Assembly: GCA_024277605.1 (NCBI GenBank)
Contig: JAJRUU010000063.1
Coordinates: forward strand, 1-36,718
Length of the DNA: 36,718 bases
DNA from: a bacterium
GTDB taxonomy: Bacteria > SZUA-182 > SZUA-191 > JAJRXT01
Direction of reading: 5' to 3'
Made by a program: the position numbers and the translations under genes. Shown here piece after piece: positions 9,266 through 10,620 of the stretch. The notes below the pieces were generated by a model, which ran no database searches, was not told where the DNA came from, and was given only the letters and a program-made list of their open reading frames with translations. Position 1 is the stretch's first letter, and each line of letters begins with the position of its first letter.

Positions 9266-9293
9266 TTGACAAATATTAACATTATGTTAAACT
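9266..9293 (+). promoter_or_regulatory. Candidate sigma-70 promoter with embedded palindromic operator upstream of the TAC operon
   Basis: TTGACA (9266-9271), a 16-nt spacer, then TAAACT (9288-9293). A palindrome TTAACAT-T-ATGTTAA (9276-9290) lies between the hexamers. The ATG at 9295 follows immediately, so either the mRNA is leaderless or the -10 assignment is wrong. Confidence 0.35.
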
Positions 9294-9294
9294 T

Positions 9295-9606
9295 ATGAGT
9301 AACCACAATACAACCATCCAACTCCATAAAGATACTGCGTTAAGGTTAATACACAGAAATCTAAAAAATGGAAAATTTGTCCTTAGAGAACACTTCAAAG
9401 ACAGGCTAAACGAAAGAAACCTATACACTCAGGACGCTATTTATGTGTTAGAAAATGGCATCATAATTGCGGAACCAAGGTTTGATGATAAATTGAAAAA
9501 CCATAGTTACAAGGTTGAAGGATATACTGTTGACGATGAGTGGCTGGCTGTGGTTGTAGCGTTAGACGATGATAAGATTATTTTCATAACTACTTTTGAT
9601 GACTAA
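9295..9606 (+). CDS. DUF4258-like small protein, putative toxin of a TAC module
   Basis: 103-aa ORF. 'LREHFKDRLNERNLYTQDAIYVLENGIII...YKVEGYTVDDEWLAVVVALDDDKIIFITTF' fits the DUF4258 pattern (H...R..eR.i....i..vl..G.i.......g..l.vVv......i.viTv). It ends 14 nt upstream of the antitoxin-like gene. Confidence 0.7.
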   Translation: MSNHNTTIQLHKDTALRLIHRNLKNGKFVLREHFKDRLNERNLYTQDAIYVLENGIIIAEPRFDDKLKNHSYKVEGYTVDDEWLAVVVALDDDKIIFITTFDD

Positions 9607-9620
9607 CAGGAGGTGTTTTT

Positions 9621-10205
9621 GTGAACTGTCCAACATGTGGTGGCAACATGACAGAGACAAAAAGGGATTATAAGTATACTGAATCAGGGTTAGATAACAT
9701 CACATTAGAAAACCTTACCATGCTCGTCTGTGGGTGTGGGGAAGAAATGCCGGTAATTTCCAACATTTTAGACGTGCATAGGGACATCGCCCTGGAAATA
9801 ATCAAGAAGAACGCTCCGTTAACTGGCCCGGAAATCAGGTTTCTAAGGAAAGAAATGAGGATTAATGGAACGGTTTTTGGCGAGATGCTGGGAGTTCGCA
9901 ACGTTACAGTTTCCAGGTGGGAAACAGGTGAGGTATCAATTGGCTCAGTAAGTGACAAGCTAATACGTTACCTTTTTGTTAATAAAATGGGAAGCAAAGA
10001 AAATAAATTAATACAAATTGATATTCCTGAGGGAAACCTGCAAGCATCACAAGAAATCCAAGTTATGATTGCCGTGGATGACCTAATGACAACACAAGAT
10101 ATTGAAACGACAGCTTTTGCGTATAGTGCAGGATGTGAGGGTTTTTATCGTTATCGATTTCAACCAGCGGATGCTACTTTAGATGAGTTGCCATATGCCG
10201 CCTAA
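9621..10205 (+). CDS. MqsA/YgiT-type zinc-ribbon + HTH antitoxin with long C-terminal extension
   Basis: 194-aa ORF with a GTG start after an AGGAGG SD. It has an N-terminal 'CPTCGG...CGCGEE' zinc ribbon and an Xre-type HTH 'LTGPEIRFLRKEMRINGTVFGEMLGVRNVTVSRWETGE'. About 75 extra residues follow the HTH, ending 'GFYRYRFQPADATLDELPYAA'. Confidence 0.8.
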   Translation: MNCPTCGGNMTETKRDYKYTESGLDNITLENLTMLVCGCGEEMPVISNILDVHRDIALEIIKKNAPLTGPEIRFLRKEMRINGTVFGEMLGVRNVTVSRWETGEVSIGSVSDKLIRYLFVNKMGSKENKLIQIDIPEGNLQASQEIQVMIAVDDLMTTQDIETTAFAYSAGCEGFYRYRFQPADATLDELPYAA

Positions 10206-10620
10206 AAAAGATCAATTTAAAATGACCTTTGACGGTATTAGAGTTTTAAATATCAATTTTTCTACAGACCAGGATTTTGGCGAAAAGGGTTTTTTTGATA
10301 TTAATGCCCAAATATCATTAAAACATAAATACATTGAGGAGCAAAAAAAGTTATTGATAAATCTACAAGTTGCCCTTCCGAAAGGGGAAGCCCCTTTTTC
10401 ATTTCATGTGGAAAGTGTAGGCACGTTTACCTTTCAAGAAAATCCAGAAAAAACCACCATTGAAAGGATTGCAAGAATAAATTGCCCCGCAATTATGTTC
10501 CCTTATTCAAGAGAACTTATTGCTGACCTTACCCGCAGAGCAGGCTTTCCTCCTCTTCATATTCCACCTATCAACTTTATTGCCCTATCAGCGCAGTCAG
10601 ATAAGCCCGAAAACAAATGA
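10183..10620 (+). CDS. SecB-like chaperone (TAC chaperone candidate)
   Basis: 145-aa ORF. '[14 protein letters not shown]' and '[37 protein letters not shown]' align by eye with E. coli SecB 'MTFQIQRIYTKDISF' and '[36 protein letters not shown]'. The start is uncertain: in-frame ATGs lie at 10183, 10195 and 10222, and the first two overlap the antitoxin stop at 10203-10205. Confidence 0.8.
   Translation: [145 protein letters not shown]

Follow-up and report, generated by a model that had tools for sequence, protein, structure and literature searches.

Does a compact three-gene locus on a bacterial contig (JAJRUU010000063.1 of assembly GCA_024277605.1, lineage SZUA-182) encode a toxin–antitoxin–chaperone (TAC) operon armed with a DUF4258 toxin? 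Positions 1–36,718 of its forward strand were analyzed as a single window of 36,718 nucleotides (nt). The locus consists of three consecutive open reading frames (ORFs) on the plus strand, at 9295–9606, 9621–10205 and 10183–10620. These are the genes that a preliminary description, made from the sequence alone, had read as a TAC cassette, and the ORF list of the window places them at the same positions, with an alternative ATG at 10195 for the third. The predicted short gap followed by an overlap is also present: a 14-nt spacer (9607–9620) separates the toxin and antitoxin genes, and the antitoxin and chaperone genes overlap by 23 nt (ATG at 10183) or 11 nt (ATG at 10195). We consider it probable that the window cassette is an intact tripartite TAC operon. 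Every TAC hallmark that can be tested computationally was found in it, beginning with the gene order, in which a toxin, an antitoxin and a SecB-like chaperone are co-oriented and tightly linked. Profile hidden Markov model (HMM) searches, which the preliminary description had proposed as a check, were positive for all three families (DUF4258; MqsA/YgiT with a helix-turn-helix, HTH; SecB). The TAC reading is further supported by a sister trio, by a chaperone clade linked to MqsA genes, by an antitoxin tail specific to chaperone-linked copies, and by a conserved operator.

The toxin gene (9295–9606, plus strand) encodes a protein of 103 amino acids (aa) that matched the Pfam family DUF4258 (PF14076) at E = 2.7e-14, with 53.7 bits against a cut-off of 25, in agreement with its earlier labelling as DUF4258-like. 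An exhaustive HMMER search identified 164 distant relatives, mostly of about 100 aa; a word-indexed homologue search returned no match besides the toxin itself. Among the relatives, H33 and G55 never vary, and R41, Y72, G76 and T99 hardly do; the window toxin retains each of these residues. Its structure was predicted by AlphaFold2 from an alignment (predicted local distance difference test, pLDDT, 90.5; predicted template modelling score, pTM, 0.81), in place of a single-sequence model whose pLDDT of 44 made it unusable. The top solved structures found with this model in Foldseek were 7vd7 (a Salmonella toxin–antitoxin, TA, toxin), E. coli MqsR (3hi2_D), HigB2 and HP0894; further matches were CdiA-CT, BrnT, RelE, YafQ and ParE2. 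All of the top matches are ribonuclease (RNase) toxins of TA or contact-dependent inhibition (CDI) systems with the RelE/ParE fold, also named BECR (for Barnase, EndoU, ColicinE5/D and RelE). As modelled, the toxin has this RelE/ParE-superfamily RNase fold, and it is annotated here as a predicted RNase of that superfamily. When solved structures were searched with the toxin sequence or with its profile, nothing beyond noise came up (Hsp60 and DUF87, for instance), and PADLOC matched neither the toxin nor the antitoxin.

A recent survey of toxin families (Gerdes 2025, PMC11980606) placed DUF4258 in the RelE/ParE superfamily, with its activity given as ‘Unknown’ and its references as ‘None’, and recorded 17 DUF4258–MqsA fusions. 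Published TACs are based on HigBA, MqsRA, HicAB or CmdTA. Sala et al. (2013) mention TAC-linked ORFs of unknown function. No link between DUF4258 and a SecB chaperone or a TAC was found in the searchable literature, which did not cover the list of these ORFs; within that literature, the earlier statement that a DUF4258 TAC is uncharacterized agrees with what is published.

The antitoxin gene (9621–10205, plus strand) begins with a GTG codon. By sequence inspection, a perfect Shine-Dalgarno sequence, AGGAGG (9608–9613, plus strand), lies 7 nt 5′ of this start, and none precedes the toxin ATG. The 194-aa product is a member of the MqsA family, composed of an N-terminal cysteine zinc ribbon, an HTH domain and a C-terminal extension. 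It scored 74.8 bits against NCBIfam TIGR03830 (MqsA family; cut-off 61.8) and 34 bits against the YgiT zinc finger TIGR03831 (cut-off 20.2); the Pfam MqsA_antitoxin model gave 26.5 bits, slightly under its cut-off of 30. With two models above their cut-offs, the proposed MqsA/YgiT architecture holds. Residues C3, C6, C37 and C39 and the VSRWE helix are kept across the antitoxin relatives.

A C-terminal extension that is missing from chaperone-independent relatives, as is typical of TAC antitoxins, is present in the last ~38 residues of the window antitoxin. All DUF4258-linked MqsAs extend beyond the core zinc-ribbon and HTH domains, and the chaperone-less ones stop about 10 residues past a conserved strand-like segment (IQVMIAVDDL in the window). 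The final ~35–38 residues were found only in the window, in a sister cassette (L174/L031) and in a decayed third copy (L024), both described below; chaperone-less DUF4258-linked antitoxins are without them. This stretch, TTQDIETTAFAYSAGCEGFYRYRFQPADATLDELPYAA (residues ~157–194; 10089–10202, plus strand), which only SecB-linked copies have, is a candidate chaperone-addiction tail. The preliminary description had regarded the ~75 residues after the HTH as a plausible addiction segment ending in an aromatic patch, GFYRYRF. Although a chaperone-linked tail does exist, only the last ~38 of those residues are chaperone-specific, and GFYRYRF is not at the end: it occupies residues 174–180, and the protein terminates in ...LDELPYAA. 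Aromatic residues make up 7 of the 38 tail positions. When the window, L174/L031 and L024 are compared, Y168, D188, L190, Y192, A193 and A194 are invariant, and the central aromatic pair is roughly conserved.

The terminal Ala-Ala is itself associated with the chaperone. It was found in 21 of 39 distinct SecB-linked antitoxins, mostly as ...ELALAA, and in none of 23 genuinely chaperone-less antitoxins. (The group labelled SecB-less by script gave 1/24, the single case being L031, whose SecB runs off the contig.) In M. tuberculosis HigA1, the ClpX degron is a hydrophobic C-terminal dipeptide that follows an acidic residue inside the chaperone-addiction region (PMC8165232). In CmdA, the two alanines at the C-terminus form a ClpX signal, and the chaperone of HigA recognizes aromatic residues in the HigA tail (Mets et al. 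preprint). By analogy with these antitoxins, the window tail may serve both as an addiction segment and as a ClpX degron. Separately, the antitoxins of MqsR-type TACs with chaperones of the same clade (L001–L004, L034–L081) were observed to have C-termini that are mostly ssrA-tag-like (...ELALAA), which suggests that antitoxins of this clade generally carry a ClpX degron of their own.

The third gene (10183–10620, plus strand) encodes a SecB-like TA chaperone, 145 aa long when started at the ATG at 10183 and 141 aa long from the ATG at 10195, the start used in the public gene call. It matched Pfam SecB with E = 7.7e-19 and 68.4 bits (cut-off 26), and the alignment to the SecB signature on which its original identification was based was reproduced by HMMER against E. 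coli SecB (1qyn, E = 7e-8) and H. influenzae SecB (1fx3, E = 2e-10). It missed all of the NCBIfam equivalog cut-offs for housekeeping SecB (best 68.7 bits versus 143), and it matched the PADLOC model for the TAC chaperone CmdC (PD-T4-9_C) with E = 8.7e-14. Its homologues, at 38–58% identity, sit directly after MqsA genes. The chaperone therefore falls in a SecB lineage dedicated to TA systems, a clade that the locus scan did not find in viral contigs. Two SecB-matching ORFs among the loci collected, of 316 aa (L082:629–1579) and 225 aa (L084:32–709), exceed the usual length of ~145 aa; they could be antitoxin–chaperone fusions or artefacts of choosing the most upstream start.

Is the cassette a chance juxtaposition, or does it recur elsewhere? 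Loci were gathered by scans with an alignment of the chaperone and with an alignment of the antitoxin. The nearest full-length relative of the antitoxin (P0003) lies on a 1.1-kb contig, L031, which carries genes for a 103-aa DUF4258 protein and a 197-aa MqsA, and a third ORF whose start overlaps the antitoxin gene by 23 nt. A complete trio with a 139-aa SecB is present in L174, which comes from a sample independent of that of L031. The proteins of this sister cassette are 39% (toxin), 47% (antitoxin) and 58% (chaperone) identical to those of the window, and ~75 nt of promoter/operator DNA 5′ of the toxin gene are conserved as well. Judged from these sequences, the three genes are inherited together as a unit. 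A third copy, L024/L005, has decayed: the toxin ORF is missing, the antitoxin gene is interrupted, and the SecB is shortened to 101 aa.

The chaperone-alignment scan of a metagenome collection yielded 62 loci. An MqsA-family gene ends no more than 80 nt from the SecB start in 46 of them, and most of the remaining 16 are cut by contig ends or have another antitoxin type; an MqsA gene is also immediately upstream of SecB in L001–L004. The toxins of the 62 loci include divergent MqsR-like proteins (~30 loci) and Gp49/HigB-like proteins (3 loci); canonical MqsR accounts for 16 of the 19 toxin ORFs at chaperone loci that the MqsR-like and DUF4258 HMMs left unlabelled. None of the 62 has a DUF4258 toxin. 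The antitoxin-alignment scan gave 25 loci in reference genomes and 80 in viral contigs, of which 20 and 75, respectively, are two-gene DUF4258–MqsA pairs with no SecB. Such pairs are abundant on viral or prophage contigs (L094–L173, IMG/VR), where many loci look near-identical.

A sigma-70-type promoter is predicted directly upstream of the toxin gene (9266–9293, plus strand). It comprises TTGACA, a 16-nt spacer and TAAACT, with TG before the -10 hexamer, and it agrees with the consensus at 10 of 12 positions. The palindrome TTAACAT-T-ATGTTAA, proposed earlier as a candidate operator, lies exactly at 9276–9290, where it overlaps the promoter spacer and the -10 hexamer. With up to one mismatch allowed, TTAACANNNTGTTAA has one match in the 36.7-kb window, and 0.11 would be expected by chance. 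Of the 19 closest genomic DUF4258–MqsA loci, 18 have the motif TTAACA-N3-TGTTAA (up to two mismatches) 5′ of the toxin gene, and so does the sister cassette; it typically lies 4–5 nt past a conserved TTGACA. Its background was 36 hits in 261 kb of the remaining locus sequence. The TTGACA box and the spacing of the palindrome are kept in L174/L031, L007, L011 and L012. The motif was not seen in the more distant viral DUF4258–MqsA pairs. This conservation points to the palindrome as an operator of the promoters of this MqsA subfamily, to which the antitoxin presumably binds. In the subgroup formed by the window, L011, L012 and L031/L174, the toxin ATG, which has no Shine-Dalgarno sequence, was observed 1–4 nt past the predicted -10 hexamer. 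Such a spacing suggests that the toxin mRNA of the subgroup is leaderless or that its transcription starts at an unusual site; alternatively, another promoter may be used.

Could the same arrangement have arisen otherwise? If the cassette were a divergent MqsRAC system (MqsR, MqsA and chaperone), its DUF4258 protein would be a fast-evolving MqsR homologue and the toxin nothing new. E. coli MqsR (3hi2_D) is indeed the second-best structural match of the toxin, with probability 1.00 and a template modelling (TM) score of 0.55–0.61, the antitoxin is of the MqsA family, and the closest relatives of the chaperone serve MqsR-type cassettes. However, PF15723 fails to match the toxin even at E ≤ 1, which leaves it outside the MqsR family, and hhalign aligned DUF4258 with canonical MqsR at 0.6% probability and with the divergent MqsR-like group at 8.4%, whereas the canonical and divergent MqsR groups match each other at 77%. 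The conserved residues also differ (H33, R41 and Y72 versus the MqsR pattern QDVY...K), and the N-domain of the antitoxin groups with MqsAs linked to DUF4258 rather than to MqsR. Since profile–profile homology is absent, neither can the toxin be counted as an MqsR nor the cassette as a strict MqsRAC; we regard this explanation as unlikely. We also regard it as highly improbable that an ordinary DUF4258–MqsA pair merely adjoins a housekeeping secB whose product serves protein export and has no TA role, even though the ~95 DUF4258–MqsA loci without a chaperone, the good alignment of the third protein to the export SecBs of E. coli and H. influenzae, and an apparently Gram-negative host (secretin, PilM and TolB-like domains), in which SecB is expected, would all fit. 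Against it, the third gene overlaps the antitoxin gene by 11–23 nt within a common low-GC island, and its product scores far below the SecB equivalog cut-offs while matching the CmdC model, which sets it apart from the housekeeping export SecBs. The trio is moreover co-inherited in a relative at only 39–58% identity, close homologues of the chaperone all directly follow an antitoxin gene, and the antitoxin tail is found together with the chaperone.

A decaying or inert remnant, in which the ORFs are intact by chance and toxicity or regulation has been lost, would be in keeping with the fate of L024, where the toxin is lost, the antitoxin is interrupted by a hairpin repeat and SecB is truncated; the rarity of the lineage, the lack of a Shine-Dalgarno sequence for the toxin and the awkward distance from promoter to start point the same way. 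But the three window ORFs are full length, the invariant and nearly invariant residues of toxin, antitoxin and chaperone are all retained, and the promoter and operator, both of them undamaged, agree with those of the sister cassette, so that we consider a remnant very unlikely. Several observations nevertheless weigh against the interpretation of the cassette as a working TAC. The structural matches of the toxin are modest (Foldseek E = 4.5e-3 to 0.2, TM score 0.55–0.62), its candidate catalytic residues, H33, R41 and Y72, are a guess from conservation, and no toxicity or RNase data for DUF4258 proteins were found in the searchable literature. About half of the extension after the HTH is common to chaperone-less antitoxins, and hence the length of an antitoxin tail does not by itself argue for addiction. 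The toxin ATG at 9295, the sole canonical in-frame start, lies 1 nt past the predicted -10 hexamer, which makes either the assigned promoter or the translation start unusual. With only two intact copies and one decayed copy (L024), compared with ~95 pairs lacking a chaperone among the sampled loci, the lineage is rare and may be short-lived. Finally, the surroundings are housekeeping genes and not a defence island, and a role in phage defence would rest on analogy.

The discordant similarities of its parts bear on how the combination arose. The N-domain of the antitoxin is 39–60% identical to DUF4258-linked MqsAs and 23–30% identical to the SecB-linked MqsAs of MqsR-type cassettes, whereas the chaperone is 38–50% identical to the chaperones of MqsR-type cassettes. 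Since the body of the antitoxin and the chaperone have different closest relatives, these values are most simply read as the joining of a chaperone-plus-tail module to a pair of DUF4258 and MqsA genes. The GC content is 35–42% over roughly 8600–10650, versus 50–55% in the flanks, and the whole low-GC cassette is bracketed by an inverted repeat. Its left arm, AATTAAGTATGGTGTTCCAGGAATTCT (27 nt; 9140–9166), is complementary at 24 of 27 positions to the right arm (27 nt; 10655–10681), which abuts the stop codon of a convergent radical SAM gene. In a shuffle control restricted to distant arms, the best of 150 shuffles reached 21/27; without this restriction, local palindromes interfered, and one shuffle out of 30 attained 24/27. 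No transposase and no target-site duplication were found with the flanking repeat, and no second copy of the 27-nt repeat is present in the window or in the fetched loci (L174 being too short upstream). The repeat may mark the boundary of a mobile cassette. A fuller scenario, which we put forward only tentatively and hold to be somewhat doubtful, is that a SecB-plus-tail graft from an MqsR-type TAC produced the first DUF4258-armed TAC, which moves as a non-autonomous cassette with 27-nt terminal inverted repeats.

We propose the following mechanism for the operon. Transcription would start from the TTGACA-N16-TAAACT promoter, and an antitoxin dimer, bound through its HTH domains to TTAACAT-T-ATGTTAA, would block the -10 region and so repress its own operon. 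The antitoxin would be produced in excess over the toxin, because it has a perfect Shine-Dalgarno sequence and the toxin has none. The toxin would be an endoribonuclease that arrests translation, with H33, R41 and Y72 as candidate catalytic residues, and would be neutralized by the antitoxin, probably via the zinc-ribbon N-domain, as in E. coli MqsRA. The antitoxin would be destabilized by its tail, which is rich in aromatic residues and has Ala-Ala at its end, through aggregation or degradation by ClpXP, unless a tetramer of the SecB-like protein holds the tail. Once a phage structural protein or unfolded pre-proteins titrate the chaperone, the antitoxin would be lost and the RNase set free. 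As to its origin, the chaperone and tail of an MqsR-type TAC would have been grafted onto an ordinary two-gene DUF4258–MqsA module, and the resulting cassette would then have been acquired by horizontal transfer, as the low GC content and the bracketing 27-nt inverted repeats suggest.

Next to the known systems, the cassette combines features of several. MqsRAC systems have been described in V. cholerae RC385 (Bordes 2016, PMC5105189) and E. coli C496_10 (Vassallo 2022, PMC9519451). Like them, the window cassette has the order toxin–antitoxin–chaperone and an antitoxin of the MqsA/YgiT family with conserved cysteine ligands and a C-terminal extension; environmental MqsR-type TACs have chaperones of the same SecB clade (38–50% identity), and the antitoxin C-termini are alike (...EL-x-x-AA in the window, ...ELALAA in MqsRAC). 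The toxins differ, MqsR in one case and DUF4258 in the other, with no profile-level homology between them, and the body of the window antitoxin belongs to a different MqsA subfamily (23–30% identity) with its own operator. The predicted two-gene DUF4258–MqsA type II modules share with the window the toxin family, the subfamily of the antitoxin N-domain (39–60%), the TTGACA promoter and the TTAACA-N3-TGTTAA operator. They have no SecB, and their antitoxins end ~35–38 residues earlier and without the terminal Ala-Ala, whereas in the window the antitoxin gene runs at its end into a chaperone gene.

The HigB1–HigA1–SecB-TA system of M. tuberculosis (Rv1955–1957), the paradigm of TACs, follows the same logic, with an RNase toxin, an HTH antitoxin and a tail that contains a chaperone-binding segment, and the hydrophobic C-terminal ClpX degron of HigA1, placed after an acidic residue, resembles the proposed window tail. 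Its toxin (Gp49/HigB) and antitoxin (HigA) are, however, of families other than those of the window, its chaperone is undetectable by sequence from the window chaperone, and the two tails have no sequence similarity. In the case of CmdTAC (PD-T4-9), the CmdC model matches the window chaperone, and the Ala-Ala ClpX signal of CmdA parallels the one proposed here. The toxins are of other kinds: CmdT ADP-ribosylates mRNA, and HigB depends on the ribosome. CmdTAC and E. coli HigBAC (Vassallo 2022; Mets 2024) are anti-phage TACs carried on prophages; the window cassette lies among housekeeping genes, and a role in defence is unsupported for it.

The neighbouring genes include hisD, an EPSP-synthase-family gene, a ComM/YifB-like ATPase gene, a radical SAM/SPASM gene, cobA-hemD, cytochrome c assembly genes, PilM and a secretin; no tRNA genes are present in the window. 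At 8800–8945, upstream (5′) of the cassette, an 87-nt hairpin (core 8822–8908; arms of 37 nt) sits inside a second inverted repeat. A repeat of the same family, with the core GTTGTCATTCTGAACGGAGTGAAG...TCAGAATGACAA, interrupts the decayed antitoxin gene of L024 at about 2540–2660. The hairpin repeat looks like a small mobile palindromic element; an Rfam search with the upstream hairpin gave only microRNA-type matches far below threshold, which we take as generic hairpin matches. Downstream, an 82-aa ORF on the minus strand (12275–12523), with a lipobox-like ALVGC and a repetitive C-terminal half rich in Cys, Gly, Ser and Thr, is located directly upstream of the radical SAM/SPASM gene (10680–12260, minus strand), and the two resemble a peptide precursor and its maturase.

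In conclusion, the cassette is a rare new combination of known parts and not a new kind of system. The modularity of TACs and the pairing of DUF4258 with MqsA are both known already, and the understanding of TA or TAC systems would not change. In laboratory work, addiction tails have been moved together with their chaperones to other antitoxins, and the window and sister cassettes look like a natural occurrence of such a transplant. Interest in TACs centres on stress response and on defence against phages, with the chaperone as the sensor. The operator and the ssrA-like tails (...ELALAA or ...YAA) provide predictions on autoregulation and on control by ClpXP. For DUF4258, a family of ~6,000 predicted toxins with no published activity, the cassette offers an entry point, and dependence on a chaperone would provide a built-in switch.

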